From NCBI GenBank assembly GCA_030867685.1, contig JAQOWU010000001.1, positions 1,054,001 to 1,115,855 on the forward strand: 61,855 nt of DNA, in the 5' to 3' direction. Shown one piece after another: positions 1,342 to 46,120 of this stretch. Under the pieces are notes generated by a model. That model saw nothing but the letters and a program-made list of their open reading frames with translations. It had not been told where the DNA came from and searched no databases. The translations under genes were made by a program, and so were the position numbers. Position 1 is the first letter of the stretch, and every line of letters begins with the position of its first letter. The DNA is from Wickerhamiella versatilis (Eukaryota).

Positions 1342-2272
1342 GCCAATGTTACCCCGTTTTTCTGCTTACTTAGCTCCGCAGCGCTGCTGACTATTAAGTG
1401 TAGATGCTTACTGCTAGGCTTGGTGCTTTAGAAGGTCCAAGTATATATCACTCTAACTAGTGGATTTTAGATGGTAAAATGTGCCTCTTGCTCACTTCTG
1501 AAAAGAAGTGGAATAGGTTAGATGAGTAATCCAACACCTCGGAAAGAACCCGAAGTATGCCTTTCGGTACTACTCAACGAATTCGAACTTTCACCTACCT
1601 GTGAATTTTCTTTTTTTTGCATGAGGTTATATGTATATGCTTAGGTAAATCCGCTTCTCAAGAAAGTCTCAAGAAATGTTGCTCTCAAAAATACTTTTTA
1701 ATTACAGAAATTATGTTTACTAATTAGTAGCTCTAGTTTTTCAAATTTTAAGATATCAATATTTGTTTACGATTATCCTAGTTTTTACTCAAACCCATAT
1801 TGGTAAAAGAGGCAACCCTATTTCTTATGATTTATTAGAAGTCGAGGCTACAGCGTGTAGCTTCACATATCTCTATTAATTTATTGACTGACTAGTAGAC
1901 CATCGAGAGAAGATGGGAGAACCCTAGCAACAAACTTTAATTTACGAGAGTCTTTTTGTTACAATATTCTGCGTGACAGAAGCGCTGGTGTCCGGAAGAT
2001 CATTAGTATTAATATTTGGAGCCCGCCTGATTGGAAACCGATGAACTCGAACTGGTCTCGCGACTTTCAGCGTCATAGATATATCCACTTATAGTTCACC
2101 AAGCCTAAATTTCGCAAGTGTACAAATTGTCAATTTTTGGTCATCGAACGTGTAATTTTTCATCTGTGCCCAATATCAGTAGTATCGTTTATGGACCTGT
2201 CATTGTACCACGTGATGAATTAGCTAATCAACTTATATAACGCAATAAGTAGTTATGGTGTTTAGTTAGCGT

Positions 2273-4570
2273 ATGGAAAACAAAGGTATATCCACTTCCC
2301 AGGCTCTTCGCTATCTCAGGGAAGTGGGATATAATGAAGTTGATACGCAAGATGCATATCTGTTTACTAACGTATTGCATCGGCTGTGGGGCTTCAAACT
2401 CTGGATGCTCGAATTTGCATTGATCCTGGAAATAGTACAGAGAAAAAGGCCTGAAGCTATATCTATATTCATTTTTATCTCGTTCCAGACTGTTATAGAT
2501 GGCTTTGGGGATTGGTTGAGCCACGATCTTTCTAAATCTCTAAAAAGGAGACTAAAAGTTGCTGCTAGGATCAAGAGAGATGGTCGTTGGCAATTAATAC
2601 CTTCCAGGGTCATAGTTCCTGGAGACGTTATATCATTAAAATCTGGCGATATGGCTCCCGCAGACGTAATTCTCACTTCAGGAGCTGTTGAAGTCGATCA
2701 ATCAGCATTCACTGGTAATCCATCCCCAGTATATCGCATGTCTGGAAGCATCATACTGTCTAATACAATTATTGAACATGGAGAGGCAATTGGTACTATT
2801 CAAAATACTGGCCCAAGAACCCGTTTTGGCCAGGCTAGCGATATTGATAGCGTGCGAATTCATAATGCTCCAAATAATATTGAGAGATCAGTATCATCAG
2901 TGCAACAGATTCTTGCAGGGATAGTTGTGGTTACCTTGACATTCTTGGCCAGTGTGGGTTTTTGGTATGTTGGAGAAACTGTTGAGCCGATTCCGTATTT
3001 TTTGGTTCTGGCTTCTGTTATAGTACCTATTGATGTACCAGAATTATCTGAAAATCTCATCACAATTTTGACAAGGTGGTTAGCCAAAAATGGAGTTCTC
3101 CTTACCGATTCTTCAGCATTATATGGCATAGCGGCCATAGACACACTTTGCGTGGATCGATCCAGTATTTTAACCACACATTCATCGCTGGACAAGATTG
3201 TTACGTTTAATAATGCAAAAGAGGATGAAATCCTTGGATGGGCTGCATCAACCTGTGATATCACTTCCAGCAGTTCTTTGGAAAAAGCGGTATGCCGTGA
3301 AGTTTCCAAACGCAAAATAACAGCCCCTAAAGTTGCGAAACGCTTGAGTTTTGACCCCAGCAGCAGACAATCAGGTGCAATTTTGCAGTCAGGTACTAGG
3401 ATTGTATGGGGATCCCCATCATCTATCGCCTTTTTTGTTGGCCCGGAGGCGATTCCCGAGCTATTCTATGAGCTATTAGACAGTCTAAGCTTATATGGGT
3501 CGCAGGTTCTCGCTATTGCCATGCAGCATGAAGGACAGCGGTTTGCTATACAGGGATTAATCTCTTTTCATGCTCAAATTGAGGAGAACTCTCGTTCGTT
3601 AATAAGTTCACTTAAAGATCTTGGATTGAAAATTATAATGGTCACTGGTGATACCATGTTGGCGACGCGAGCAAATGTCAGCAAGACTAGTATTGGGTAC
3701 CGCGTTTCTGAGGGAAGGGAGGGTATAGCTGACCCTGAGTTATTCCAAGCATTTGCAGACCTCTATCCAGAGGAAAAGGTTGATATAATTAATTCTTTGA
3801 AGAGAAAGGGGCACATTGTTGGTGTAGTGGGACGTGGAATAAATGATGTGGCTGCTTTGAGCTCTGCAGATATCGGTATTGCAGTAGATTCTGCATCCAG
3901 CATAGCCAAATTGTTTTCAGGTTTTATTCTGGGTACCCCTGGACTGGCGGGAATATTGACTGCAGTTGAGTTAGGACGTAAGGTGTCCCAGCGATTCTCC
4001 ACGTATATTACATTAGAATTTGTTTCAGTGCTTCAGCTTTCTTTTTTCCTGACCACCTGCTTCATTGCTACTGGGCATATTTTGCTTCCCTTAGTTGGAC
4101 TGTCATTCATAGGTCTTACTGGATGCATTATGCGAGTTGCAATAGCTACAGATAACACATATGTACCCCGACTACCTCAAGAATGGCGGGTCCGCTTTGT
4201 TTTTCGTGTTAGTTCGTTACTTGCATTAGCATGGCTCGGACTTGGGTTATCGCTAGTGTACGTGGCGACGCAATATCTCAAACTTCCAATAGAGAGCATT
4301 CAGACATTGTGTTTTGTTTATTTTCTGTTCACGTATCTTTTAACAGTAGCCATTACTAGGACTCCGAGGATATCTTGGACTCTGCCCCCTGGTTATCTGC
4401 TTCTAATCACGATGCTATGCAGCGGCATTTTTGCGGTTTCTATCAGTTGTTTTGGCTGGGGTCTTAGACCCGCTGATTTCAGGATCACAATTTCACTTGT
4501 GGGTATTATTATGATTGTGGGTATTGTGCTAGATTGGATTAAATCAAGAGTTCTATCTAAATCGACCTGA
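2273..4570 (+). CDS. P-type ATPase-like protein, P3A (H+-efflux) type, with degenerate catalytic motifs
   Basis: VPGDVI, VDQSAFTGN (for TGES), CVDRSSILT (for CSDKTGTLT), MVTGD, PEEK, GRGIND (for GDGVND), IATDN, ~10 TM segments, short N-terminus. Confidence 0.85.
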   Translation: MENKGISTSQALRYLREVGYNEVDTQDAYLFTNVLHRLWGFKLWMLEFALILEIVQRKRPEAISIFIFISFQTVIDGFGDWLSHDLSKSLKRRLKVAARIKRDGRWQLIPSRVIVPGDVISLKSGDMAPADVILTSGAVEVDQSAFTGNPSPVYRMSGSIILSNTIIEHGEAIGTIQNTGPRTRFGQASDIDSVRIHNAPNNIERSVSSVQQILAGIVVVTLTFLASVGFWYVGETVEPIPYFLVLASVIVPIDVPELSENLITILTRWLAKNGVLLTDSSALYGIAAIDTLCVDRSSILTTHSSLDKIVTFNNAKEDEILGWAASTCDITSSSSLEKAVCREVSKRKITAPKVAKRLSFDPSSRQSGAILQSGTRIVWGSPSSIAFFVGPEAIPELFYELLDSLSLYGSQVLAIAMQHEGQRFAIQGLISFHAQIEENSRSLISSLKDLGLKIIMVTGDTMLATRANVSKTSIGYRVSEGREGIADPELFQAFADLYPEEKVDIINSLKRKGHIVGVVGRGINDVAALSSADIGIAVDSASSIAKLFSGFILGTPGLAGILTAVELGRKVSQRFSTYITLEFVSVLQLSFFLTTCFIATGHILLPLVGLSFIGLTGCIMRVAIATDNTYVPRLPQEWRVRFVFRVSSLLALAWLGLGLSLVYVATQYLKLPIESIQTLCFVYFLFTYLLTVAITRTPRISWTLPPGYLLLITMLCSGIFAVSISCFGWGLRPADFRITISLVGIIMIVGIVLDWIKSRVLSKST

Positions 4571-10904: not shown

Positions 10905-12890
10905 ATGAATGTCGGGAAATTGTTCGGGGAGCTTGAAGCCAGCTTGGATGTAGGGAAGCCTCAGGGTGGCTTCTTTACAAAGGGCGATGCTGTTAAAGGT
11001 ACTTTACACCTGAACGTGGCTAAAAAGGAACAAATCAAGAAGATAGAGATGTGTCTTCGATGCACCGAAGAATCAGTTGTGTTGAGGAAGGAGGATATGG
11101 ACAAGTTATCCAAGGGCACTCCCATAAAGAAGAACTCTTTGCAGTCACGTGCTACGGAGTCGAAAGTTCACTGGGAAAGTGTGCAGGTATTCATTGCAGA
11201 GGGAAAGAGTGATATTATACCGATACACGAGACAAGCAGAGGAGAATATACACATCAGTTTTCTTTTAACATACCAGAAAACCTGGACCTTATTCCGGGT
11301 AGTGCCATTATAAATGTATCCGACGGCCAAGAAATCGGCATTAAGTGGACTATAGAGGCTGTTGTTCACCGCCCAGGTCTTGCACCCAAGCGTAAAATCA
11401 CCACTATAATATCAGTTTTGAACGATGGGCCTGTCCTTCCAAAACACCAAGATAGAGCTTTCTTTACTGGCTCTAGATACGTGAGATCCTATAGACCGGG
11501 CGATTTGTCGGGCATTAGTGGAATACGCAAAATGATCGCGGGAAAAAATCGGGAGAAGGCATTAATGAGCTTCCGAGCTTCCTATCCAGCTACTATTTTA
11601 CCACAGATCCCTTTGAGGTGTCAAATTGGATTAACTTTAACTTCCAGTCATCCCGGACTGATATATTTGGATGACATTCATATTAATCTTATTCAGCACT
11701 GTTCTGCCCAGGCTAAGAATCAGAAGGCTGACTACTTCAAGAAGCATGAAATCGGCTGTATTACAGAGCATCGTATTCTCTATGAAAATTCTGTTGATTT
11801 CACGCCCAAGTTGGAGAAATGGGGTCTCAACGTACCCTTCCCGCCTAATTTTGAGACAAATATGCTGAAATGCTCCTACAAAATAGAGGTTGAAATGAAC
11901 TTCAAGTATCTTAATACCAAGAAAGGAAGGGAAATTGACTCCATTGAAACCCTTTCTTCGACAATTCCTGTGATTCTGGCATCACTTGTGGATTCAGCGA
12001 AAGTATACGAGGACACAAAGGAAAAGGAGCTGGTCGCGGCTCAAGTAATTCCCAAAACGCCTGACATTAGTATGGGACTCGACTTTAGATCTCAAAAAGG
12101 TGAAAATAAACTTTCATCATCAGAGGGTAAATCTACTCATAAAAGAAAACTAGAATTGTCACCTGCTGCACCAGTTGAAGCAGAAATCTCGATCACGCAG
12201 TCAAAAGAAGGCGAAACTGCGCTATTGCCTCAAATTAGTGCCAAAGAGAAAGTTATTTGCGAGGAAGAACTTAATGCTCCTTTGAGCTCCATATTGGAGT
12301 TGTTTGTGAATAATTCGTCTTCGTGGTACGAAAAATTTCTCACAGATGTTGAGCATAATACTGATTTGTCGTGTATCCCGAATTTCCAAAAGAATGATTC
12401 CGGAAGAGAAAATCGAGCCTACGAGTACACAAAGCATATGAATGCGTCCGTTGGGCCTAAGTCGACCAAGTGTATCTGTGTTGATGAGATAGAATCGTTC
12501 GAGCCTGATAAAAGTGTTGTCGTATTAACAACCACGAAGACTCCTGATGTCCCAAATGGGGATATTTTTACAACATTTACAAGACTTTGTGTGGCTCGTA
12601 GGGAGAACAATGGAACTAAAATTCGCATTTCTTCATGGTTAGAGTGGAAAGGGAAATCATGGCTGAAGTCAGCGATAGAAAAGGGTGCCGTAAAAGGTCA
12701 AATGGAACATTCGCTACTTTTCGTAAACCATCTTAAAGAATCAAACGGGGAGAAAGTCGTGGAGTCTCCTCAGCAATTGCGTATTTCAGAAAATGGCAGT
12801 TTCAATATTTATATTATTGCGTGTATCATTTCGGGTTTGGTGCTATTTGTATTATACTTGAATAATTATTGGGCACCATGGGCTAAGTAA
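10905..12890 (+). CDS. Arrestin-fold N-terminal region fused to a VASt/StARkin sterol-transfer-like domain with a C-terminal TM anchor
   Basis: N-term FTKGDAVKGTLHL..I..C.E and GEYTHQFSFNIP (arrestin_N pattern). C-term TPDVPNGDIFTT..RLC..LEWKGKSWLKSAIEKG (Lam/Ysp2 VASt pattern). Hydrophobic tail. Confidence 0.7.
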   Translation: MNVGKLFGELEASLDVGKPQGGFFTKGDAVKGTLHLNVAKKEQIKKIEMCLRCTEESVVLRKEDMDKLSKGTPIKKNSLQSRATESKVHWESVQVFIAEGKSDIIPIHETSRGEYTHQFSFNIPENLDLIPGSAIINVSDGQEIGIKWTIEAVVHRPGLAPKRKITTIISVLNDGPVLPKHQDRAFFTGSRYVRSYRPGDLSGISGIRKMIAGKNREKALMSFRASYPATILPQIPLRCQIGLTLTSSHPGLIYLDDIHINLIQHCSAQAKNQKADYFKKHEIGCITEHRILYENSVDFTPKLEKWGLNVPFPPNFETNMLKCSYKIEVEMNFKYLNTKKGREIDSIETLSSTIPVILASLVDSAKVYEDTKEKELVAAQVIPKTPDISMGLDFRSQKGENKLSSSEGKSTHKRKLELSPAAPVEAEISITQSKEGETALLPQISAKEKVICEEELNAPLSSILELFVNNSSSWYEKFLTDVEHNTDLSCIPNFQKNDSGRENRAYEYTKHMNASVGPKSTKCICVDEIESFEPDKSVVVLTTTKTPDVPNGDIFTTFTRLCVARRENNGTKIRISSWLEWKGKSWLKSAIEKGAVKGQMEHSLLFVNHLKESNGEKVVESPQQLRISENGSFNIYIIACIISGLVLFVLYLNNYWAPWAK

Positions 12891-13333: not shown

Positions 13334-14284
13334 TCAACAAAGAGGATTCAGCCATCTCTCTACCGGATCTTCAGGCTGAAAAGTCGAAAAGTAGTGTGGA
13401 TCAGACTTCATAATGGCCAAGAGGTCCTCAGCTATATGGGCTCCCTCCCTGGTAGGGTTTACCACTGCCAATACGTTATGATCGGGTACGCACCAGTCTG
13501 GAAGGATTCTAGTAAGCCTGCCAGCTTTAATCTCTTCGGAAACTGTCCATTCAGTGCCTTGGATAATGCCTTGACCTTCTATGGCCCACTTGTACACAAC
13601 ATCGACGTCATTGCAAACAAAACTGGGACAAAACCTTGCCTCGAAACTTTTTCCGCTTTGGCCTTCCAATCGCCAACATGCATTCGCGACATCTCTGCTT
13701 TCCTGAACAACACCACAAGAATGCTTCCATAACTGCTCAGGATGACTAGGATTTTCACATTTCGAAAGATAACTGGGGGAAGCGCAAAGAAATCTGTGAT
13801 TGGGGCCAAGGTTAACCTGCTTTTTGTCGGTCCTGCGAGCCTCTCCGAGATAGATTATCAAGTCCCAGTCGGGTTTTGAGAGATGTTCACATGGATTTTC
13901 AAGAAGCACGAGTTGTATTTTAAGACTAGGCCTCATTTTTCTCAAAGATATAACCTTTTTAGCCACGAAATTTTGTCCAAATCCCAGTGGTGCCAGAATT
14001 CGCAATGTTTCGTCTCCTCCACCACGAACACTATTGAGCTCGCAAGTAATACCTGCGATCATAGCTAGCACAGCAGCTCCTCGCGAGGCTAAAAGTACCC
14101 CTGCTTCAGTGAGAGTGTATCCTGTCTGACGTCGCTTAACTAATTGCAACTGTAGCTTGCGCTCCAATTGTGTTAGTCTCTGGGAAACTGCGGGGGCTGA
14201 TACATGCAGAGCATGAGACACTTCTACAAATGTCTCTTGCAGGGCCACAGCCTGGAAGAATTTCATGTCGGAAGAATCCAGCAT
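13334..14284 (-). CDS. Bacterial-type LysR-family transcriptional regulator (CrgA-like)
   Basis: HTH F..VS.ALHVSAPAVSQRLTQLERKL..QLV.R....TLTEAG. Substrate-binding domain motifs PLGFG, CASPSYL, ND...WA.EGQGI, AGRL.RILPDW. ATG at 14284 (the ORF track starts at GTG 14329). Confidence 0.9.
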   Translation of the reverse strand: MLDSSDMKFFQAVALQETFVEVSHALHVSAPAVSQRLTQLERKLQLQLVKRRQTGYTLTEAGVLLASRGAAVLAMIAGITCELNSVRGGGDETLRILAPLGFGQNFVAKKVISLRKMRPSLKIQLVLLENPCEHLSKPDWDLIIYLGEARRTDKKQVNLGPNHRFLCASPSYLSKCENPSHPEQLWKHSCGVVQESRDVANACWRLEGQSGKSFEARFCPSFVCNDVDVVYKWAIEGQGIIQGTEWTVSEEIKAGRLTRILPDWCVPDHNVLAVVNPTREGAHIAEDLLAIMKSDPHYFSTFQPEDPVERWLNPLC

Positions 14285-15350
14285 TCTCAACAAGAAATAC
14301 ACGAAAAGCAGTTTGTTACTAATACTCACCGGGAGACCTTTTAGCTCCCAAAGGGATGGTTCTAGATAACGTCAGTCCCAATTGAAACCCACTGATTGCG
14401 CCACAAAAACTTAGTTATTCAAGCATACCATACATAATTGTTACTATCCTCAACATATTACTTGCAAGCTCGACCTACTTTGCATTGTTTTAGTATCACC
14501 ATATGGAACACAAAGGTCTCTTGGTCTCCAGCTACGTGTTGCTTGTCACATCAATACGTATTTATTCGCCATCATCGATTTTATTGCTTTTCTGAGATTT
14601 TATATGTAGCCTTGCGGACTCTCTGCGTTATATAAGCTTTAAATTGTCGATGTGGTCCAGTGCTTCGTCAACAAGTAGCTGATATAATTGGCTAAATATA
14701 GGCTTACTGGGCTACTGAAAGATTGATATCACTCTTATAGATATAACTGCAAACATTAGGATGACAATTATTAATGTATTCAAGTTTCTCTATTTCAAAA
14801 GGGTGTCCTGCACAAATTATCCACTGTAGCAAGTTCCACAATAATAAGATCAATATCTATCTTGCTATTTCTGTTTAAGTGGATGCATAGTTCATGCTAC
14901 GGGCTATCCTGCCTTTCTATGTCTTCTCAAATTATCTCTTGTCATCAGGGTCAGGGCTAGACAAACACTATGTGAGCAAACGCTTAACTTGCAGTTAATA
15001 TTAATAATATGCAGAAAGTTTTGCCACGATCTAGGTTTCCAGGCGACCAATGGACGGAACTGTAAATAAGTATTTACATAAAAAATTCAACTTAAAGAGG
15101 TATGCCAAGGACAGAGCCGAGACTATTTATTATGCTTCACTGATGAACCAGCAACGATTTGCCTTAACAACAAATATTTATGTGCTATGAATATAACAGG
15201 TTTGTTTTATTTATATCTACTCTTATCTCAAGTTTTCTCTGGAAGCAGTGGCAAAATGTTGGAGAACTCCGATGTTATATAATCTCGCAAGTTTTCCCTC
15301 ATGGTATATAAGCCGCAGCATGACGCACCACTCTCCACAGATTGCAAAAG

Positions 15351-19004: not shown

Positions 19005-22000
19005 TCAGCCTTCTTTCCTGCTGTCAGTGTCCTTGTTGAAAACACTTGAAGCATAAGATATGCTAGTGTAAGTTCGGAAAGGATGATGTGCAACTTCAGC
19101 GGTTCCGGACTCTTCGTCACCACTGGTGGTGCTTCCATACTTCCTACGAATATATACTCGCTTTGCCCACTTCCATAATTCTGACCCAATCAAATAAACC
19201 AGCGAAAATCCGACAGCCACGCCCCATTCATAGCCAATCCCCTTATGCTGGAATACTTTGTCGTTAATAACTGGAATATACACCAGAGGGAATACTGTGA
19301 TGAACCCACCTAATAGCGACCAGAAGAGGAATTTGTTTGACCACAGTTGGTGCCAAGTTTGCACATACCATCGGTCTCCACTGTGTGGACGCGGGAAGAA
19401 TATAGAATTGCGTAGATGTACACATTCCCAGGCGAGTATCAGCGCTGTCCAAGTCATAGTGACAAATGCTGCAGCTCTTGCCTCAAGAACTAAATCACAA
19501 CCCACTAGATTTGAAGAAAGACTCTCGTTGCAGTTTTCACCGAGCTGACCATCGCCTCTACCGTGCCAGACTACTGTAAAAGATGCCATACAGCAACTTG
19601 CCATCCAAAGACCATAGACAAACATATCAAGGAGTAGCTCTGGCGTGAATATGGAATTGCTCGGTGGTAGGTCAAGAATATCCTCCTGGGCTGCTTCTTG
19701 GCCTAGCCCCATGGCTGGAAAGCAGGAGGTGACAACGAGAACCCAGAGAACTTCAACAGGGGAGAGAGGAAATACGGAAAACCACTCGTTGTCTTTAAAC
19801 GCTAAACCAGCCGTCAAATAGATGCCCTCAGCGATGTTTTCAGCTAGCAGTTGAAGCACAAATTTTTGAATATTTGCGGCAATTCTGCGACCCTCTCGAA
19901 TGGCCGCCAAAATTGAGGCAAAGTTATCATCCGTCAGAACGATGTCTGAAGCATCCTTTGCAACATCCGAGCCATTTTGGCCCATCGCAATGCCCACATC
20001 GGCTATTTTGAGAGAAGGACTATCATTTACACCATCACCAGTCATGGCACATAGCATCTTGCGGCGATGAAGGGCTTCAATCATTCTCACTTTTGTCTGT
20101 GGTGCACAGCGGGCTATAACCAAGGGCAGGACTGGCAGGCGATCTATCTGTTCATCAGTAAGTTCATCAAACTGCATCGCAGTCATAACCATAGCGTCGG
20201 CAACTTCTTTACTAAAAGCTTCCATATGTTTAGGAAGGATCCCAACCTCCTTTGCGATTGCCGCTGCGGTGGATGGATGATCACCTGTTACCATGTGTAC
20301 ACTAACCCCCGCATTGTGGCAGAGTCGTACGGATTCTGCTGTTTCCAAACGCGGTGGATCATAGATGCCAACAAGACCCAGGAAAATCAAATTGCTTTCA
20401 ACGGCTTCGCGGTCGTCAGAATCTTCGTTGTCCTCGTCAAAAGGCCGGCAGGTTAGAGCCAAGACTCTCAGTCCTGACGAGGAAAGTGCATCGACATTTT
20501 TCTCGATCATAGCTATATCATCCTCGGTGAGATCGCATAAAGCTTCCTCTGAGCCTTTAACTTCATTCTCGCCTTTCCATTTAGTACATAGTCTCAGGAC
20601 ACGTTCCACGGCACCTTTTGCGTATACCTTCACGGGAACATTTTCGTCCTCACCAAGCCTCCAGATAGATGACATCCTTTTAATTGAGGAGTCAAATGGA
20701 TGCTCCTTAAGATGCTCATAATTTCTTTCGTTGACAATATTTTCGCGCTGGAAACCTAGCCGCGAACAAAACACTTCGATCGCTATTTCGGTGGCATCTC
20801 CATTAGCCTTCCACACCAAATCGCCACTTTCGCCGTCTGCTGGCTGCTGACTGACATTTGCAACATTGGCCAGCGTGCCACAATGAAGCCACTCGACAAG
20901 GTGGGGATGAAACTCTGCTTCATTCTTTCGATCGATATCGCTAAACGAACTGGAACCAGGATTACCCTTGAGCTCCAGTGGCGAGCTTGAGGAAACCCGT
21001 AAACTTCCAATATCTGGGTGATATGGATCGTTAGAGTCATCCATGCGATACGTCCCCGCGCCCGGAACCCATATAGTCCTTACAACCATCTTTCCCTGGG
21101 TGAGAGTTCCGGTTTTGTCTGAACAAATATCATTAATTCCCCCAAGCGCTTCTAACGAATTAAACTTGCGGACGATTACGTTGTTGGCGATCATTGCCTC
21201 AGCCCCAATGGCCATGGTTATTGTCAACGTAACCACTAGTGCAGCAGGAATCAGAGATACCGCAACGCATACGGCATAAATACCGATCTCTTTCGTTACA
21301 TCCATCTTCTGGGCCGCCATGACGATTATGGCAAAAACCACAGCAATCCAGAACAGGATCACTGCCAGCCAGGATAACTTGCGCTGAAGTGGTGTGCCTA
21401 CGTTAGTCCCGAGGAAGTATCCGATCATGTTTTTACAGGTCAGTCCACATGATCGTGAATAATCTTTGAAATGTCGCGTCCCATCCTCACGTTTCTCAAC
21501 TGGAACAATTATTCCACCCTGATTCCGTAGTGTTTTGGCAATACTCCCTATTTCTGTGTCCAACCCAATGGCCGTTACGATCCCTATGCCTCGTCCTTTT
21601 GCGATTAGGGAGGATGAGTACAATAAATTGAGACGATCACCCACGGGTATAGGGATTGATGTATCTTCGTATATTTCATGTGGATCCTTTGCGATGGGTA
21701 AAGACTCTCCAGTGAGGAGTGCCTCGTCCGCCTCAAGATTAGTAGCCTCAATCAGTCTCATGTCCGCTGGCACTGAGTCACCTGATGTGACATGTACGAT
21801 GTCACCGGGCACCAGTATGGATGCCTCCACGGTCTTCAGCTCTCCATCCCGCAATACCCGGGCCGAAGGGGTGCTGAGCATGCGCAGAGCGCCCATAGTT
21901 CGTTCCGCCTTAACCTCCTGGATGAAGCCTATACCGACATTCATAAAAACTACAAAGCCGATTACTCCTCCAGAAATCCAGTCTTTAATAGCTAAAGCAA

Positions 22001-22301
22001 TAATCATAGATGCAAATAAAACTATAACCATGGCGTTGAAAAACTGATGAACTAGAATGCCCAAGTAATTCACTCGTTGGTCGTCACCCAGGGCGTTTTT
22101 ACCATATTTCGTGCTACGCTCCGCAGCCTGGGTGGAGTTGAGCCCAACGTCCAGATTTACTTCCAATTTATTTGCACAATCGTCCACGCTCAGCCGATAC
22201 GGCTCGAACGCTGAAGCAGCGACGTCGTTTTTCTGAACACTATTACCCTGATCACTTAATGTATTTGCCTGTTGCAATGCTGGATTATTAGGTGAGGGCA
22301 T
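19005..22301 (-). CDS. ENA1: P2D-type Na+/K+ efflux ATPase
   Basis: LTGES, CSDKTGTLTQGKM, KGAVE, TGDH, TGDGVND, LLAENIAE; fungal ENA features. Confidence 0.95.
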   Translation of the reverse strand: MPSPNNPALQQANTLSDQGNSVQKNDVAASAFEPYRLSVDDCANKLEVNLDVGLNSTQAAERSTKYGKNALGDDQRVNYLGILVHQFFNAMVIVLFASMIIALAIKDWISGGVIGFVVFMNVGIGFIQEVKAERTMGALRMLSTPSARVLRDGELKTVEASILVPGDIVHVTSGDSVPADMRLIEATNLEADEALLTGESLPIAKDPHEIYEDTSIPIPVGDRLNLLYSSSLIAKGRGIGIVTAIGLDTEIGSIAKTLRNQGGIIVPVEKREDGTRHFKDYSRSCGLTCKNMIGYFLGTNVGTPLQRKLSWLAVILFWIAVVFAIIVMAAQKMDVTKEIGIYAVCVAVSLIPAALVVTLTITMAIGAEAMIANNVIVRKFNSLEALGGINDICSDKTGTLTQGKMVVRTIWVPGAGTYRMDDSNDPYHPDIGSLRVSSSSPLELKGNPGSSSFSDIDRKNEAEFHPHLVEWLHCGTLANVANVSQQPADGESGDLVWKANGDATEIAIEVFCSRLGFQRENIVNERNYEHLKEHPFDSSIKRMSSIWRLGEDENVPVKVYAKGAVERVLRLCTKWKGENEVKGSEEALCDLTEDDIAMIEKNVDALSSSGLRVLALTCRPFDEDNEDSDDREAVESNLIFLGLVGIYDPPRLETAESVRLCHNAGVSVHMVTGDHPSTAAAIAKEVGILPKHMEAFSKEVADAMVMTAMQFDELTDEQIDRLPVLPLVIARCAPQTKVRMIEALHRRKMLCAMTGDGVNDSPSLKIADVGIAMGQNGSDVAKDASDIVLTDDNFASILAAIREGRRIAANIQKFVLQLLAENIAEGIYLTAGLAFKDNEWFSVFPLSPVEVLWVLVVTSCFPAMGLGQEAAQEDILDLPPSNSIFTPELLLDMFVYGLWMASCCMASFTVVWHGRGDGQLGENCNESLSSNLVGCDLVLEARAAAFVTMTWTALILAWECVHLRNSIFFPRPHSGDRWYVQTWHQLWSNKFLFWSLLGGFITVFPLVYIPVINDKVFQHKGIGYEWGVAVGFSLVYLIGSELWKWAKRVYIRRKYGSTTSGDEESGTAEVAHHPFRTYTSISYASSVFNKDTDSRKEG

Positions 22302-30662: not shown

Positions 30663-33071
30663 ATGTCTCTTTTTGAGCCGGTGGGTCTAGGTGATGTCGA
30701 GCTAGGCCATAGAATTGTCTTGCCACCACTCACCCGATTGCGAGCCAACGAGAAAGGAGTTCCAAGTGGACTGGATGCGGAGTACTACAGGCAACGAGCC
30801 CAAGCAACCGGAACCTTGCTAATTGCAGGTGCCTTAATCAATGATGATGACGAGGCACATCCGTCGACACCAGGCATATACACTAGTGATCAGATAAAAG
30901 GCTGGAAGAAAGTCACTGCTGCTGTACATCAGCAGAAATCTTTAATATTTCTACAGCTATGGTCGATTGGTAGGTATTCGGCTGGTAAAAACTATGGAGG
31001 TAAAGGTGAGCCAGTAGGTGCCCCAATAGATGAGCTTTCCACAGCGGATATAAGTGATGTTGTCAAGGATCATGTGAAGGCAGCTAGGAATGCTATTGCT
31101 GCTGGATTTGATGGTGTCGAGATTCATGGAGCTCACGGCTGCTTGCTAAATCGATTCCTGTATGACGATAACAGTAGGAATGATAGATATGGTTGTTCAA
31201 TTGAAAACAAAGTGAGGATATTTTTTGACATCATAGACGCCGTATCAGATGCCATAGGGTCCCCAAAAGTCGGATTGCGCCTTTCTCCATTTGATAGCGA
31301 CTATGCCTATGGCCCTATCCCCATATTTTCTTACTTATTAGCAAGGTTGGAACAAAAGAAGAAGGAGGGAAGAGAAATTGCATATGTACATCTCGTAGAA
31401 CCTCGAAATCCAGGCGAGAATTCGGACTTTATCCGCCATATTTGGTCAGGCATACTTATTAGGGCTGGTGGCTTCACTCCAAAGACAGCAGCAGAGGCTG
31501 TGAAGGATGATCCTAAGCTACTGATAGCTTTTGGTAGGTATTTTATATCGAATCCTGACCTTGTAAGGCGCTTGCGGGATAACCTCCCTCTCACCAAATA
31601 CGATAGAAGTACGTTCTACAGTCAGGATGCAAAAGGCTATACCGATTATCCAACTTATGACGAACAGATAGAGCGGGAACGGTTACATCAACCCAAGAAA
31701 TCCCGCCTGCAGAAAAAGCTCATTCTAAATGCGTTTGCGATGACGACGCCAAACCATCTGTCACCCGGTTTATGGAGGCATCCAAGTAGTGACACCTCCA
31801 ATTATAACAAGGTTGAATACTGGGTGAACTTAGCGAAGTTGCTTGAACGGGGGAAATTACATGCACTTTTTATCGCTGATACGCTTGGACCCTATGATGT
31901 ATATGGAGGCCCAAGGAACATTAAGCCTGCTGTCACAACTGGCACTCAGTTTCCAGTTGGTGATCCTGCACTAGCTGTATCTGCAATGGCTGATGTGACC
32001 CAAAAACTTGCCTTTGACGTGACGACAAGCACAACTTATGAGCATCCCTACACTGTAGCTCGAAGGTTTTCGACCTTAGATCATTTGTCAAATGGACGGG
32101 TTATCTGGAATATAGTAACTTCTTACTTAGAAAGTGCAGCCCAAATGTATGGTCTGGAAACGCAGATTGATCATGATGAGAGGTATGGTAAAGGTGAAGA
32201 GTTCCTAGAAGTTTGCTATAAGCTCTGGGAATCCAGCTGGAAGGACGATGCTGTCCTTCGCGATAAAGCTCAAGGGATATTTGCTGATGTGAACAAAGTA
32301 CGACCTATTCATCATGAAGGGAAGTATTTCAAGGTTGATGGTGTGCATATCAATGAGCCATCTCCTCAGCGCACACCTCTACTTTTTCAAGCAGGAACCT
32401 CCAAGCGCGGAAGTGAATTTGGTACAAAGCATAGCGAGCTGATCTTTATATCCGGATTTAATTCTGCTCGTACAGGTCAAACGGTAGCGGGCCTTAGAAA
32501 ACAAGCTGAAGAGCAGGGGCGCCGTGCCGACCAAATCAAGATCGTGGTTAGCGTTGCTTTGATTTTAGGAGAAACAGATGAAGAGGCGCAGCAGAAGTAT
32601 AATGATTTCTTGTCTTATGCGGATGTTGAGGGTGCTCTCACCCTTTTTGGTGGATGGACAGGGAGTGATCTGGCGAAATTTCGTGACGATGATGACTTTC
32701 GTTTTGAAGGTCCGCCCGCCATTCAGTCAACTGTACTTAGTATTGACGATTCCAGACGGTGGACTAAAGCAGATATTGCCAAGGAATTGATTCTTGGCGG
32801 GTTTAGCCGCAAGATAGTCGGTAGCCCAACTACTGTGGCAGATGAGCTGGAGCGTTGGGCGACCGAATCGGATCTTGATGGGTTCAACCTTGCCCATATT
32901 ACATCTCCTGGGTCTTTTGAGGACATCGTCAACTTGCTTGTGCCGGAGCTCCAGCGGCGCGGCATATTTCACGATGACTATGACAGCGCTGAAACCGCAA
33001 GAGGCCAGGTTTTTGGCCATGACCATTTGCCAAGCGAACACCCAGGGTATCAGTACAAGTGGCTTGATTGA
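30663..33071 (+). CDS. Fusion: Old Yellow Enzyme barrel + NtaA/DszA/DmoA-type luciferase-like monooxygenase
   Basis: aa ~1-333: PLTRLRA, GFDGVEIHGAHG, AYVHLVEPR, FGRYFISNPDL, GYTDYP. aa ~350-802: LNAF..GLWRHP, LERG..HALFIAD, STLDHLS.GR..WNIVTS, PSPQRTP.LFQAGTS, PELQRRG. One uninterrupted ORF. Confidence 0.92.
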   Translation: MSLFEPVGLGDVELGHRIVLPPLTRLRANEKGVPSGLDAEYYRQRAQATGTLLIAGALINDDDEAHPSTPGIYTSDQIKGWKKVTAAVHQQKSLIFLQLWSIGRYSAGKNYGGKGEPVGAPIDELSTADISDVVKDHVKAARNAIAAGFDGVEIHGAHGCLLNRFLYDDNSRNDRYGCSIENKVRIFFDIIDAVSDAIGSPKVGLRLSPFDSDYAYGPIPIFSYLLARLEQKKKEGREIAYVHLVEPRNPGENSDFIRHIWSGILIRAGGFTPKTAAEAVKDDPKLLIAFGRYFISNPDLVRRLRDNLPLTKYDRSTFYSQDAKGYTDYPTYDEQIERERLHQPKKSRLQKKLILNAFAMTTPNHLSPGLWRHPSSDTSNYNKVEYWVNLAKLLERGKLHALFIADTLGPYDVYGGPRNIKPAVTTGTQFPVGDPALAVSAMADVTQKLAFDVTTSTTYEHPYTVARRFSTLDHLSNGRVIWNIVTSYLESAAQMYGLETQIDHDERYGKGEEFLEVCYKLWESSWKDDAVLRDKAQGIFADVNKVRPIHHEGKYFKVDGVHINEPSPQRTPLLFQAGTSKRGSEFGTKHSELIFISGFNSARTGQTVAGLRKQAEEQGRRADQIKIVVSVALILGETDEEAQQKYNDFLSYADVEGALTLFGGWTGSDLAKFRDDDDFRFEGPPAIQSTVLSIDDSRRWTKADIAKELILGGFSRKIVGSPTTVADELERWATESDLDGFNLAHITSPGSFEDIVNLLVPELQRRGIFHDDYDSAETARGQVFGHDHLPSEHPGYQYKWLD

Positions 33072-37607: not shown

Positions 37608-38693
37608 TCAGACACCCCTTTCCTCCAAGACACGGCGGACTCGTGGTATTATCTCCCGCCCGTAGTCGATCGCATCGTTAAGATTGTCATAGCCTCTAAT
37701 AGATATGAGGTCAGCACCAAGATCAACATAGTCAAGTATCGAGTCAGCGATAGTCTTTGGAGAACCAACTAGGGCAGTGGAGGCTCCACGGGCATTAGTT
37801 GCCTGGACAGTGGGGTACCAAAGTGCTCGGTCCTGGATCTCCCCCTTTGCAGCAATCTCGAGAAGGCGCTGCGACCCCACATTCTGCGGGGGAGGCGCAT
37901 TTGCGGGTGTTTTAACCAACTCGCCAGCTGCCCGGTTCTTCTTAAGTATCTCAAGCGTTCTATGAGCCTTTTCCCAGGCCAAGTCATCAGTTTCAGCAGT
38001 AATTGGGCGGAATGTAACCCAGATTCTTGGTTTGTCAGTTCTACCGGCCTTCTCTGCCTCCGCGTAGATACGATCAATTTGCTCCTTGGTCTCTTTGAGT
38101 GGTTCACCCCAAAGACCGAAAATATCTGCTAATGACCCCCCGATCCTGTATGCTTCTGGAGACGAGCCACCTACTGAGATTGGGATCTTGCCATTCACAG
38201 GTAGAACCCGATTGCTGAATTGCTTGAACTGATAGAACTTGCCGTCCCAGTCGAAAGGCTCCGATGACTTCCAAGCCCTCTTAAGGATCTTGATGTATTC
38301 CTCTAGACGAGCATACCGCTCTTCCTTGGTCAAGAAGTCGCCCTCCCTAGCCTGCTCGGCATCATTTCCACCAGCAATGAAATGCACGACTGCCCGGCCT
38401 TTGCTGAGCTGGTCTAGAGTAGCAAGTGCCTTAGCGGCCACTGTTGGATATAGGGTGTTGGGACGGAGTGCGACAATGACCTTTAGCTGTTTTGTCACGG
38501 AGGCGATTGTGGCTGCTGTGGTGAAAGGATCAAATCCACCAGAATCATATGGCTGCAGTGTGTAATTAAATCCGTAGTCATCTAAATTACGAGCGTAGCG
38601 GACCAGATAATCGGGGTCCACACCTGCTTTGGGCTGTGGATTGATCTCAGTAGACGCATTCGGAAACGCCAAGCTGATGAATTCAACCGGCAT
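37608..38693 (-). CDS. Luciferase-like (SsuD-like) FMNH2-dependent alkanesulfonate monooxygenase
   Basis: IVALRP, ATLDQLSKGR, EQAREGD..K.ERYAR..EY, VGGSS.EA, WGEPL, TALVGSP. Likely start MPVEF at 38693 (an upstream in-frame ATG lies at 38759). Confidence 0.92.
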   Translation of the reverse strand: MPVEFISLAFPNASTEINPQPKAGVDPDYLVRYARNLDDYGFNYTLQPYDSGGFDPFTTAATIASVTKQLKVIVALRPNTLYPTVAAKALATLDQLSKGRAVVHFIAGGNDAEQAREGDFLTKEERYARLEEYIKILKRAWKSSEPFDWDGKFYQFKQFSNRVLPVNGKIPISVGGSSPEAYRIGGSLADIFGLWGEPLKETKEQIDRIYAEAEKAGRTDKPRIWVTFRPITAETDDLAWEKAHRTLEILKKNRAAGELVKTPANAPPPQNVGSQRLLEIAAKGEIQDRALWYPTVQATNARGASTALVGSPKTIADSILDYVDLGADLISIRGYDNLNDAIDYGREIIPRVRRVLEERGV

Positions 38694-39389
38694 TGTAACT
38701 TTTCTCGTCTTTGCCCTATCTGTAGAATACTGTTTCTGTATATACTCGACCTTAGGCATTTTTAAATGTATCCCACTTTAGTCACAAAGGGATTGCGACA
38801 AAGGCTCAGTGATCACGCCATATCAGATATGTGATGACTAATACATTAAGCTACTGAAGACAACCAACAAGACAGCAAGCTTTACAATTGACGAGTCTTA
38901 ACTCTCCAGCTTTTGCCCCAGACTTATCTTGAATTTATGTGGTTGCATAGTACGTATATACATATACACTGGTCTATCCGGAATTATCTACACGATACTC
39001 AAACTAAGGTTCACGACTTGTTGCAATCCAAACATTTAAATAAAATACCAGCAAATATTTCGCGAATTAAAATGATTATACAGCTATAAGATGATGTTAA
39101 AGACTATGCTGGAGGCACAGTGCAGGAGATAAGACATATTCTCGCGTAATAGCAAATTCAATAGTTGAGGATAAGGAAATAGGTTGTCTAGAAAATCAGG
39201 TAGTAAAACAATATCAGAAATGAAATAAATTGCCGAAATTGTGTTCGTCTTGTCATTTTACAATTGCTTTCAGATATCTGAGAAAGATTCAACGATCTTA
39301 CTGATAATGAGGTTCGTGATGTCACGTGCCATGGGGCAAGACACAGTATTTAGCGTAGGCTCTGCCGATTTCTAACCTCAACCTCGAGA

Positions 39390-40577
39390 ATGGCACCAAT
39401 TTCCACACAGGCTGAAGCTATCCCAAGCGAAGTTGATGGGTCTAAGGCTTCACATGGTCCTATCACTGGTCTAGATATTCAAAGATTGTATCTGGAGGAT
39501 TCGCAGTCGAATTTACTGGATAATTACGAATTTAAGGATTTACTGCCAACCTTTCCTGATCTCAAATGGGAGCCACTCCCTGTTCATGAATACACGGATA
39601 GAGCGCTTAGTGCTGACCCCACGTTCCCCACACTATTCAAAAGTGTGACTCGGGTGGAGCATCTAACCCCTAAATTTGGTTCAGTTCTCCATGGAGCTGA
39701 TCTCTCGAAGCTTTCTGATTCGCAAAAGGATGAGCTCGCACTATTCACTGCTTACCGAGGGGTCGTGTTTTTTAAAGATCAGAGAAACCTTGATATCAAG
39801 AAGCAGTTAGAGTTGGGCCGATACTGGGGGAGATTGCATCGCCATGCTACAACTGGAATCCCCCGAGAGGCTGAAAATGATCCTAACTTGCTTGACGTCC
39901 ATGTGGTATATGCATCGGAAAAGCGCGCAACTAGCCTGGGAGGAGGGTCACCATGGCATTCGGATGTATCATACGAAAAACAGCCGCCGTCGTATACTAC
40001 GCTCAAACTACTTCATGGTCCACCAACTGGCGGTGATACTGCTTGGGGTAGTGCTTATGGTCTATATGACAGCCTGTCCCCCCGTTTCCAACGCTACCTT
40101 GAGGGTCTCACAGCACTCCATTCGGCTGTTGAACAGGCAGATGGTGCACGCAGACTTGGTAAGACTATACGAAGGGAGCCTGTCATTACTGAGCACCCAA
40201 TTGTTCGAACACATCCTGTGACTGGTTATAAAGGGGTGTATGTTAATCCTGGATTCACTCGTCGTATAGTCGGGGTGCCAGGAGCCGAATCTGACTTTGT
40301 GCTCAAATATCTGTTTAAGCTGATCGAGGAAAATGTGACACATACCGCGCGCTGGCACTGGGACCCGCAGGATGTTGCTCTGTGGGATAATCGGTCAACT
40401 GTGCATGCAGCCTCCTACGGTTTTTACCCACATCGCAGGCATGCAGTAAGGGTAACTACCCATGGCGAAGTTCCATACTTTGATGGAGGTAAGTCAGAAC
40501 AAGAAACGATTGATGCAACTCTCGGGCTTCATAGTTTCGAGAAAGATTGTGCCAAACCTCCTGCATTCGCAGACTAG
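39390..40577 (+). CDS. TauD/TfdA-family 2-oxoglutarate-dependent sulfonate dioxygenase
   Basis: RGVVFF.DQ, WHSD, GGDT, HPIVRTHPVTG, WDNR.T.H, R..VRV. Confidence 0.95.
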   Translation: MAPISTQAEAIPSEVDGSKASHGPITGLDIQRLYLEDSQSNLLDNYEFKDLLPTFPDLKWEPLPVHEYTDRALSADPTFPTLFKSVTRVEHLTPKFGSVLHGADLSKLSDSQKDELALFTAYRGVVFFKDQRNLDIKKQLELGRYWGRLHRHATTGIPREAENDPNLLDVHVVYASEKRATSLGGGSPWHSDVSYEKQPPSYTTLKLLHGPPTGGDTAWGSAYGLYDSLSPRFQRYLEGLTALHSAVEQADGARRLGKTIRREPVITEHPIVRTHPVTGYKGVYVNPGFTRRIVGVPGAESDFVLKYLFKLIEENVTHTARWHWDPQDVALWDNRSTVHAASYGFYPHRRHAVRVTTHGEVPYFDGGKSEQETIDATLGLHSFEKDCAKPPAFAD

Positions 40578-44311: not shown

Positions 44312-44806
44312 TATATTGAAGCAACAGCAATTTTAGTTGCAATTAACAATGCCACTCCAAATATTGACTCATGTAGTGTACACTAGCATACCCATTAAGG
44401 TGATGCGTCTGTCAAGATAAGATAAATAAGTAGACGGTTAATAGACCAGAAAAGACGCAGATACTTTCGTATTTGCTGGAAGTTCATATTTATAGTGTAT
44501 CCTAAAGTAATTTATCCACCAAACATAATTCTATGCTTCTATGATCTTGCCATCCTTGTAGTGCATTTACTTCTGTAGATAAGAATCTATGTTGATTATT
44601 AATCGGAGTCCTTGGTTTTCTGTGGGGAAATACGAGGCATCACGCAATAGTGTAGTACAAACCCTTATATCCGTAATTCGAGAACTCTTCATTTCCGGAA
44701 GTAAAGGAAAAACTCTGGAGAGTACTAGATAGAGTTAAGGCTAAAGTTTAGGTCTCGTTCTCAGTGGTGACATATTGGCGAATTGCCTCCAAACAACTCA
44801 ACCGAT

Positions 44807-46120
44807 ATGGCACCTCCAGCAGCTCTCAAGGCAGAGCCAGAACCTACACTACAATCCATTGACTCCAATGCGATTGGCAAGCTAACCTTGAATAGTAGCT
44901 CACCTTCCTATAGAGAGGGGACAAATTCACTCACTATACCCAAGCCGTCACCAAATAATGTGAACGCGGTGAAACATCTTCCAAAGCAAACCAGATCTAG
45001 ATTCCAGCGGCATGGGGTGGACCTTTCAAAAGGTTACCCTGAGTATCCTGAGAACCCTCCGTTTTACTTGGATGAAGGATATGCGATTCGCGGCGAGCCG
45101 TGGACACACATCGAGCGCGGGAAAAATGCAGACCCTGATAAGAAAGCTCTTTTTGACGCGGCTAAGGAGGTAAAACATCTTACTAAATACATCGGAACCG
45201 AGATTGTAGGCCTTCAGATCTCTGAACTTACTGATCAGCAGAGAGATGAATTAGCCCGGCTTATCGCTGAAAGAGTTGTAGTTTTCTTCCGCGACCAGGA
45301 CTTGTCACCCCAGAAACAACTCGAATTAGGCCACTACTACGGTAAAGTTGAGATCCATCCGAAGGTTCCTCACGTACCTGGACTTAATGGAACAACCGTT
45401 ATTTGGCCCAAACTAGCGAATCTCTCAGCGAAGAACAAATTCAGCTTCAAACATCCGGCAGGTACGTCATACTGGCATACCGATCTGGTGCACGAAATCC
45501 AGCCAGCTGGGATCACACACCTCCACAATGATACAATTCCTTCCGTAGGTGGTGACACCGTGTGGGCATCGGGATATGCGGCATATGATAAGTTGTCCAG
45601 ACCTTTCCAGAAATTTCTCGACGGTAAGAAAGCTGTCTACCGGTCCGCACACACATACTTGGACCGCAATGATCCTTTGTCAGGACCTAAATACATTGAA
45701 CGTGAGCACTATCTAGTACGGACCCATCCTGTTACTGCTTGGAAGTCTCTGTTTGTGAACCGGAGCATGACTGTGAGAATTGTCGGTCTCGAGCCAAAAG
45801 AATCAGCTACAATTCTGGAGCTACTCTACGAGGTTTACGAGGGTAATCCAGATATTCAAGTACGGTTTAGTTGGCAACCCACAGTTGAAGGTCTTGGTAC
45901 TTCCGCGTTATGGGACAATCGTATATCCCAGCATTTTGCCGTATGGGACTACGCAAACGAATCTTCTGCAGATGGCATAGAAGATGAAAGTATCGCCCGT
46001 CATGGTACACGTGTTACCTCTCTCGCAGATAAGACTTTTTTGATCCGAATTCGAAATCTCAGAGGGATAGCCTTGGCCTATCGAATCCTTGAACTGGTCC
46101 CATTCATATCTATCTTTTAG
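44807..46120 (+). CDS. JLP1: Jlp1-type sulfonate/2OG dioxygenase; C-terminal tail apparently frameshifted at a T6 run (46036-46041)
   Basis: DLSKGYP, AERVVVFFRDQDLSPQKQL, WHTDLVHE.QPAGITHLHND, WDNRISQH, RHGTRVT. One extra T would give the family-like tail FFDPNSKSQRDSLGLSNP* ending at 46092. Confidence 0.9.
   Translation: MAPPAALKAEPEPTLQSIDSNAIGKLTLNSSSPSYREGTNSLTIPKPSPNNVNAVKHLPKQTRSRFQRHGVDLSKGYPEYPENPPFYLDEGYAIRGEPWTHIERGKNADPDKKALFDAAKEVKHLTKYIGTEIVGLQISELTDQQRDELARLIAERVVVFFRDQDLSPQKQLELGHYYGKVEIHPKVPHVPGLNGTTVIWPKLANLSAKNKFSFKHPAGTSYWHTDLVHEIQPAGITHLHNDTIPSVGGDTVWASGYAAYDKLSRPFQKFLDGKKAVYRSAHTYLDRNDPLSGPKYIEREHYLVRTHPVTAWKSLFVNRSMTVRIVGLEPKESATILELLYEVYEGNPDIQVRFSWQPTVEGLGTSALWDNRISQHFAVWDYANESSADGIEDESIARHGTRVTSLADKTFLIRIRNLRGIALAYRILELVPFISIF

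Follow-up and report, generated by a model that had tools for sequence, protein, structure and literature searches.

A gene of the yeast Wickerhamiella versatilis appears to encode a proton pump that no longer pumps. The stretch of DNA analysed here, referred to as the window, comprises 61,855 nucleotides (assembly GCA_030867685.1, contig JAQOWU010000001.1, positions 1,054,001 to 1,115,855), and all coordinates below are those of the window itself. On its forward strand, positions 2273..4570 are occupied by an open reading frame (ORF) for a homologue of P3A-type ATPases of prokaryotic size (P0001). This gene is probably a pseudo-pump that was acquired from bacteria, has been kept under moderate purifying selection and acts as a static binding protein. 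It is considered to be retained rather than wrecked because the whole fold has been kept and because its rate of evolution does not exceed that of its functional neighbours. Few enzymes are understood as well as the P-type ATPases, whose pseudo-enzyme forms are hardly discussed in print. The gene represents a clean natural experiment, in which a bacterial P3A pump residing in a yeast has lost nearly all of its catalytic and proton-site residues and yet changes at the rate of the working genes around it.

The ORF starts with ATG and continues for 765 codons in a single frame without interruption, as had been noticed in a first-pass annotation made from the letters of the window. With stop codons representing about 6% of codons at the local base composition, the probability of 765 open codons is estimated at ~1e-21 (0.94^765), and the ORF is therefore no chance event. 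By fold and domains, the product belongs to the P-type ATPase superfamily. Pfam identifies PF00122 (E1-E2_ATPase; 85.8 bits, cut-off 28.1) and PF00702 (HAD-type; 29.8 bits, cut-off 26.4), and the AlphaFold2 (AF2) model, calculated from an alignment of 44 sequences (mean pLDDT 84.8, pTM 0.80), displays a full head of A, P and N domains and the ten predicted transmembrane (TM) helices, including an unwound M4 with a helix break at residues 250-255. In Foldseek comparisons the model superposes with TMq values of 0.83 on Pma1 (7nxf), 0.82 on MgtA (8uy7) and 0.80 on AHA2 (5ksd). Among the 20 NCBIfam families matched, the highest-ranking is TIGR01647 (plasma-membrane proton-efflux P-type ATPase), of which profile positions 1-754 out of 755 are covered; the score of 346.9 bits is nevertheless well below the curated cut-off of 615.5 bits, so the protein does not qualify as an equivalog of this family. 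Against proteins of solved structure, HMMER aligns it with yeast Pma1 (7vh5; 2.1e-53, 185 bits), Neurospora Pma1 (1mhs; 1.6e-50) and Arabidopsis AHA2 (5ksd; 1.7e-48). Since the alignment with Pma1 begins at about residues 84-87 and stops at about residue 857 of 918, the protein lacks both the N-terminal extension and the C-terminal tail of the fungal pump; the first-pass annotation had remarked on the prokaryotic size and the missing N-terminus, to which the missing tail can now be added.

Motif positions were taken from HMMER matches with the Pma1 of yeast and of Neurospora and from two MAFFT alignments, which independently agree, and the state at each position was compared with that of 42 aligned homologues (bacterial, archaeal and long-form). 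Two yeasts are distinguished: lineage A, the yeast of the window, and lineage B, a closely related yeast carrying the orthologue P0121. All motifs lie on the forward strand. In the phosphorylation loop (aa 295-299, 3155..3169), the phosphorylated Asp295 is kept in the context LCVDRSSILT, but DKTGT reads DRSSI; the replaced Lys, Thr, Gly and Thr are each found in 42/42 homologues, and Arg, Ser, Ser and Ile in both yeast lineages. The TGES motif of the A domain reads TGNP (aa 147-150, 2711..2722), with Asn in both lineages at the position equivalent to the catalytic Glu149, which is Glu in every homologue. GDGVND reads GRGIND (aa 520-525, 3830..3847), in which Asn524 and Asp525 are kept while the Mg2+ ligand equivalent to Asp521, again invariant in all 42, is Arg in both lineages. 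Finally, Cys618 of the M6 segment SFIGLTGCIMRVAIATDN occupies a position that is Asp in 42/42 aligned homologues. These four departures had all been listed in the first-pass annotation, and the alignments confirm them.

The losses extend beyond that list, to N303H, to an N-domain Arg (R411Q), to the hinge, to the KGAP motif and to M5. The hinge DPPR or D[TS]xR is replaced by AQIE (aa 434-437, 3572..3583), with Ala and Glu at positions that are Asp in 42/42 (D434) and Arg in 41/42 (R437) homologues. KGAP of the N domain is replaced by WGSP (aa 379-382, 3407..3418). Position 379 is occupied by Leu in 19 homologues, Lys in 17, Met in four and Phe in two, so that many of the short bacterial forms already do without this Lys. 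An origin of WGSP in the LGSP seen in the nearest clade was considered and dropped, being indistinguishable from a direct change of KGAP. In M5, Glu582 (4016..4018) takes the place of a basic residue (Lys in 35, Arg in six and Ala in one of the 42) that serves P3A pumps as a built-in counter-ion (Palmgren, 2023; PMC10654040). In M6, the motif GCIMR (aa 617-621, 4121..4135) has Gly-Cys instead of the Asn-Asp proton site (N617 in 40/42, D618 in 42/42) and a new Arg621 at a position that is Thr, Ile or Val in all 42; lineage B has Ser at position 618, and this C618S difference is supported at the DNA level by sequencing run X20. Neither the M6 Asp equivalent to AHA2 Asp684 nor the M5 basic residue equivalent to AHA2 Arg655, both of which characterize a P3A H+-ATPase, is therefore present. 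The unwound segment of M4, PIDVPE (aa 252-257, 3026..3043), keeps both prolines, P252 and P256, which are invariant in the homologues, and has acquired Asp254 and Glu257 at positions that across all 42 homologues are Thr, Ala, Ser or Gly (254) and Ala, Thr, Ser, Gly or Met (257).

Considered over its whole length, the yeast protein keeps 80 of the 127 columns that are conserved in at least 90% of the 42 homologues. Fifteen positions that are invariant in 42/42 have been altered (E149N, L191I, L280S, K296R, T297S, G298S, T299I, N303H, R411Q, D434A, M518V, D521R, A526V, V552I and D618C), nine of which are catalytic or ion-site residues. Besides Asn524, Asp525 and the M4 prolines, TGD (aa 458-460, 3644..3652), K502, D627 and R696 have been kept. 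The residues lost are needed for the P-type cycle: neither DKTGT nor the Glu of TGES nor a GDGxND with both Asp residues, which together mark a competent P-type ATPase, is found in the protein, and at the level of sequence its description as pump-dead is supported. The degeneracy is specific to this ORF, as an ENA-like P-type ATPase encoded in the same window (19005-22301, reverse strand) keeps TGES, DKTGT, DPPR, TGD and GDGVND intact. Alternative decoding of CUG leaves the reading unaffected, because none of the 13 CTG codons (residues 30, 38, 52, 162, 246, 306, 553, 558, 593, 610, 685, 704 and 709) falls at a motif position.

It is very improbable that the protein is still an enzyme, with a non-canonical HAD-type site hydrolysing ATP or another phosphate ester, perhaps coupled to transport. 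Such a site might be built from Asp295, Ser297, Thr458 of TGD, Lys502 (motif III) and Asn524 with Asp525 (motif IV), which are all present; K296R and T297S are conservative changes, and the A and P domains are the parts most conserved between the two yeast lineages. Against this activity stand the loss of the Mg2+ ligand (D521R), of the TGES Glu, of R411 and of the Asp and Arg of DPPR, the changes G298S and T299I within the phosphorylation loop itself, and the loss of the M6 Asp and the M5 counter-ion, at positions that are invariant in 42/42 or 41/42 homologues.

The nearest relatives of the pseudo-pump are bacterial. In a collection of 5.8 billion proteins, its only close relative is a cluster mate with 95% identity, P0121; the next best match, P0002, has intact motifs and shows 34% identity (463 bits), and the rest, mostly prokaryotic 'H+-transporting ATPases' of ~780 residues, show 31% or less. 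An exhaustive HMMER search of 1.84 billion representatives returned 39,307 matches at E <=0.001, the best with 33% identity and 418 bits. Both of these collections include eukaryotes. A scan of GTDB, with one genome per prokaryotic species, yielded 396 relatives, the best of which (32-34% identity) come from Ralstonia, Sphingobium, Burkholderiales, Dyella and Pandoraea, as well as from metagenome-assembled genomes (MAGs) of Chlamydiota, Acidobacteriota, Planctomycetota and Synergistota. The scores of 463 and 418 bits to short bacterial P3A proteins, compared with 185 bits to Pma1, support the prokaryotic derivation put forward in the first-pass annotation.

The same conclusion is suggested by a maximum-likelihood (ML) tree (IQ-TREE 'quick', LG+C20) of 63 rows, of which 41 are near-full-length loci chosen from among 80, 20 come from databases and two from the yeasts. 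The yeast pair falls within an all-bacterial, Proteobacteria-rich clade of 23 rows (SH-aLRT 96), its stem measuring 3.06 substitutions per site (median tip 0.25), and the long Pma1/AHA-like forms make up a separate clade (SH-aLRT 99), in which P0268 and P0232 (558 bits to Pma1 and 605 bits to AHA2, respectively) act as proxies in place of a bona fide fungal Pma1. Mean identity decreases from 32.1% with the 23-row clade to 29.6% with other short forms and 25.4% with long forms, and 17 of the 20 informative indel blocks agree with the short forms. With both terminal extensions absent and the ML tree grouping it with bacterial short forms, the protein does not show the features of the fungal Pma1 subfamily.

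Some observations detract from a firm placement among bacteria. An approximately unbiased (AU) test does not reject a placement of the yeast pair beside the long forms (delta lnL 25.6, p 0.103), so that the nesting seen in the ML topology is statistically insecure. Only one of the 12 signature residues of the 23-row clade is found in the yeast protein; for the signatures of four groups the counts are 1/12, 3/31, 0/10 and 0/13, and in a two-way split they are 2/22 for the wider LGAP-type group, which is without the KGAP Lys, versus 4/9 for its complement. In addition, the genomes scanned through GTDB are exclusively prokaryotic, and the absence of the gene from other yeasts rests on the protein searches. 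The insecure nesting, the missing signatures and the prokaryotic genome scan would also be compatible with there having been no import at all, the gene being instead an old eukaryotic or fungal P3A paralogue that has disappeared from nearly all fungi and diverged beyond recognition. This is nonetheless quite improbable: the two billion-scale searches found no eukaryotic protein nearer than the bacterial ones, identity is 22-28% with long Pma1/AHA-like forms but 30-34% with bacterial short forms, and the indel blocks, the missing extensions and the unconstrained ML tree all point to the latter. Taking these data together with its linkage to host genes and host-like codon usage (see below), a transfer from a bacterium to a yeast is the best reading of the sequences.

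Among six bacterial loci, no conserved gene neighbourhood of the relatives was found (24 of 40 flanking ORFs checked by Pfam). Conjugation-type genes adjoin the homologue in two of the six: L007:6333-8291 (Dyella) lies next to a TraI_2 relaxase/helicase and L001:16-1878 (Ralstonia MAG) next to a DUF3363 gene, which suggests that the pump clade of these closest bacterial homologues, from Dyella and Ralstonia, moves among bacteria on conjugative elements.

Evidence for retention of the gene comes from a comparison of lineages A and B. The orthologue P0121 is identical at 728 of 765 positions (95.2%), with 37 differences and no gaps, and preserves every degenerate motif and every new charge, the M6 Cys618 being replaced by Ser. 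Each allele is represented on four contigs, and on the lineage-B contig (85,971 bases) P0121 is accompanied by orthologues of five downstream neighbours, which makes the locus syntenic. Protein identity between A and B is 97.3% for the ENA-like pump, 97.2% for a histidine phosphatase, 95.2% for an aldo-keto reductase, 93.4% for a Zn2Cys6 regulator and 92.4% for an arrestin-VASt protein; as the 95.2% of the pseudo-pump lies in the middle of this range, it changes no faster than its functional neighbours. The differences are unevenly distributed: the cytoplasmic head (400 residues) has 11, whereas the membrane part together with the N-terminus (365 residues) has 26 (p 0.008).

Nucleotide differences are available for part of the gene. 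A contig of 463 nt from run X20 covers 3941-4386 with the lineage-B allele and shows 16 differences, 12 of which are listed (five synonymous and seven non-synonymous, the latter all matching P0121 states), and a contig from run X15 shows nine differences over 3685-3835, seven synonymous and two non-synonymous; X15 and a further run, X17, cover the ORF in part only. By the Nei-Gojobori method, the 594 nt from X20 and X15 give dS 0.084-0.099, dN 0.021-0.030 and dN/dS (omega) 0.24-0.35, and a binomial test against neutrality gives p 0.001-0.012. The stop-making fraction of possible substitutions is 4.2%, and by our arithmetic neutral drift at dS ~0.09 would be expected to leave ~8-9 stops and a protein identity of ~81%. 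Over the two lineages, the gene thus behaves as a pseudo-enzyme under selection. Close-orthologue fragments were searched for among shorter proteins and none was found (64 matches, none above 48% identity).

The first-pass annotation had left a choice between a retained pseudo-enzyme and a gene in early decay. The former is the better fit to the gap-free orthologue and the partial omega, while the latter is kept alive by a single allele: a contig of 293 nt from run X15 (depth 3.6) has G>A at position 2590, turning the codon of the invariant Trp106 (2588..2590, forward strand) from TGG into TGA. This contig may be an assembly error. Run X15 also shows V219M and lineage-B states at 3685-3835, and two alleles or strains may therefore be mixed in it.

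According to the decay scenario, the gene would be a dispensable bacterial import that lost its function together with its motifs and in the sampled genomes has not yet met a disabling mutation. This is possible, although doubtful. Several facts besides the W106* allele count against retention or in favour of decay. The omega value is relaxed for a yeast gene and was obtained from 26% of the gene by combining two runs, its range reflecting the four unlisted X20 differences; the binomial p includes no correction for transition bias, and such a correction would weaken it. Only two close lineages are known to carry the gene, and none of the runs containing the stretch is on record as RNA, X20 being only guessed to be RNA. 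The stem branch is long, and the region looks like accessory DNA that evolves fast and contains many acquired genes. On the other hand, both lineages are intact on four contigs each without a single indel in 765 codons, a stem of three substitutions per site without one frame break is incompatible with neutral drift, and the synonymous excess, the mid-range identity and the lack of orthologue fragments all differ from what drift would produce. The stop codon itself was seen at low depth and may be an error. Retention as a pseudo-pump is accordingly preferred over decay.

The gene resides in a yeast genome. Its neighbours in the window are fungal and include Zn2Cys6 regulators, an alternative oxidase (with named relatives in Sugiyamaella, Trichomonascus, Magnusiomyces, Blastobotrys, Geotrichum and Lipomyces), the ENA-like pump and the arrestin-VASt protein. 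The GC content of the ORF is 0.426 (0.362 at third codon positions), and its codon-usage distance of 0.093 is within the range of 0.063-0.134 observed for 20 other ORFs of the window. The stretch is present in 20 runs from ten studies, mostly food-fermentation metagenomes but also an isolate, and independent contigs and assemblies span the ORF with both of its flanks. Fungal neighbours, host-like codon use and independent contigs bridging the flanks show that the gene is no contamination.

Upstream of the gene, an intergenic region of 931 bp (1342..2272) is shared with a divergent ORF on the reverse strand (250-1341). It contains a TATATAA-like box (2234-2240) and, on the forward strand, a four-codon upstream ORF (ATG GTG TTT AGT TAG, 2255-2269) that ends four bases ahead of the main ATG. 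The arrestin-VASt protein is encoded by a single ORF (10905-12890, forward strand) in which a VASt lipid-transfer domain is fused to arrestin N and C domains. An intact LysR-type ORF (13334-14329, reverse strand) displays a bacterial architecture, HTH_1 plus LysR_substrate, within the yeast genome; it is probably another bacterial import, of a regulator type that is not expected to work in a eukaryote. Further downstream, from 30663 to 60306, there is a run of sulfur-scavenging-type genes, which comprises an OYE and luciferase-like monooxygenase fusion (30663-33071), a luciferase-like monooxygenase (37608-38759), two TauD dioxygenases (39390-40577 and 44783-46120), an OYE and FMO fusion (48667-51072) and an arylsulfotransferase (57164-58285), together with several MFS transporters and one SSF transporter.

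These observations can be combined into a tentative history of the pseudo-pump. A gene for a short, bacterial-type P3A pump would have entered the ancestor of two close budding-yeast lineages, Dipodascales-like as judged from the neighbouring genes, and would have adapted fully to the base composition of its host while P-type catalysis and the proton site were lost. From what is established for the family, the change of Asp521 to Arg would have abolished the usual Mg2+ binding; that of R411 to Gln, together with the disappearance of the DPPR hinge and the KGAP Lys, the positioning of ATP; that of the TGES Glu to Asn, dephosphorylation; that of Asn-Asp to Gly-Cys or Gly-Ser, the carriage of protons on M6; and that of Lys/Arg to Glu, the use of the M5 counter-ion. 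The resulting protein would be a conformationally locked, non-cycling membrane P-type fold, which would act by binding and without turnover of ATP. By analogy, its most likely role would be to assist or modulate a true pump or transporter. Alternatively, it could serve as a passive cation-binding or leak module by means of its remodelled charged core, in which Asp254, Glu257, Glu582 and Arg621 are new while Lys582 and Asp618 have gone. Within this core, the pair K582E and T621R looks like a charge swap that would preserve a salt bridge between M5 and M6, and in the head Arg521 may pair with Asp295. A more elaborate proposal, in which the protein is an ATP-independent membrane device with a self-satisfied dead site (Arg521 beside Asp295) and a rebuilt transmembrane core, operating either as a cation gate or leak or as a helper that, like petunia PH1, docks onto a true pump, here the Pma1-type pump of the cell, seems unlikely.

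If the protein is functional, it would show what the P-type fold is able to do without ATP, whether as a partner, a sensor or a leak, and the bacterial genes that yeasts have domesticated, most of them metabolic, would be joined by one for a membrane protein. Were it to be an ATP-independent device, it would be the first functional P3A pseudo-pump and would exemplify inter-domain gene transfer followed by neofunctionalization. Without a function, it would be an ordinary acquired gene in the course of being lost. Among the titles and abstracts listed by literature searches there was no description of P-type pseudo-pumps and no acquired P-type ATPase in budding yeasts, although supplementary lists of horizontally transferred genes, which lie outside such a search, might include this one.

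Of the known systems, the short prokaryotic P3A ATPases (TIGR01647) are the closest. They share with the yeast protein a length of ~765-800 residues, the absence of N- and C-terminal regulatory extensions, colinearity over the whole length and the same ten-helix fold, and it is to them that its best similarity is found. The M. jannaschii protein MJ1226 (Q58623) is listed among them, and the transport function of the prokaryotic short forms is itself described as undetermined (Palmgren, 2023; PMC10654040). The yeast protein differs from these pumps in being encoded by a yeast, in scoring far below the family cut-off and in having lost DKTGT, the TGES Glu, the first Asp of GDGVND, the Asp and Arg of DPPR, the N-domain Arg, the M6 Asn-Asp and the M5 Lys/Arg. 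On the evidence of its sequence, it is a degenerate derivative of the short prokaryotic P3A pumps, and since it scores below the family cut-off and lacks four defining motifs, a classification as a P3A H+-ATPase would be inappropriate. With fungal Pma1 (7vh5, 1mhs and 7nxf) and plant AHA2 (5ksd) it has the family fold in common, but identity in structural alignments is ~22-23%, the catalytic and proton-site residues are lost and, unlike Pma1, it has neither an acidic N-terminal extension nor a C-terminal regulatory tail; the long forms are also separate in the ML tree.

The best precedent for a non-pumping role is petunia PH1, a P3B ATPase and probable bacterial import that does not itself transport H+ but enhances the activity of the P3A pump PH5 (Palmgren, 2023; PMC10654040). 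Both proteins are bacterial-type P3 ATPases found in a eukaryote, and PH1 is described as working by binding the true pump PH5; however, PH1 belongs to P3B while the yeast protein is of P3A type. PH1 is not known to have degenerate motifs, which restricts the analogy to function.

Among the 150 best matches, a parallel in terms of erosion is provided by nine further P3A-like representatives, in which DKTGT, TGES and GDGVND are degenerate and, in three of them, the phosphorylated Asp is replaced by Asn. These are P0254/P0276 from Rhodospirillum rubrum (Q2RS32 cluster, with six cluster members within the species), P0238 from Oxalobacter vibrioformis (WP_269309143, Asp to Asn), P0229 from Spongospora subterranea (A0A0H5QW77, Asp to Asn), P0214 from a Parachlamydia MAG, and P0194, P0195, P0225, P0250 and P0251. 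Like the yeast protein they are full-length pump folds with the three motifs eroded, but they represent independent lineages with different substitutions and none of them is close to it. Pseudo-pumps of the P3A family thus seem, from these sequences, to have arisen repeatedly and, given the degenerate proteins of Rhodospirillum, Oxalobacter, Parachlamydia and Spongospora, may constitute a recurrent and overlooked class.

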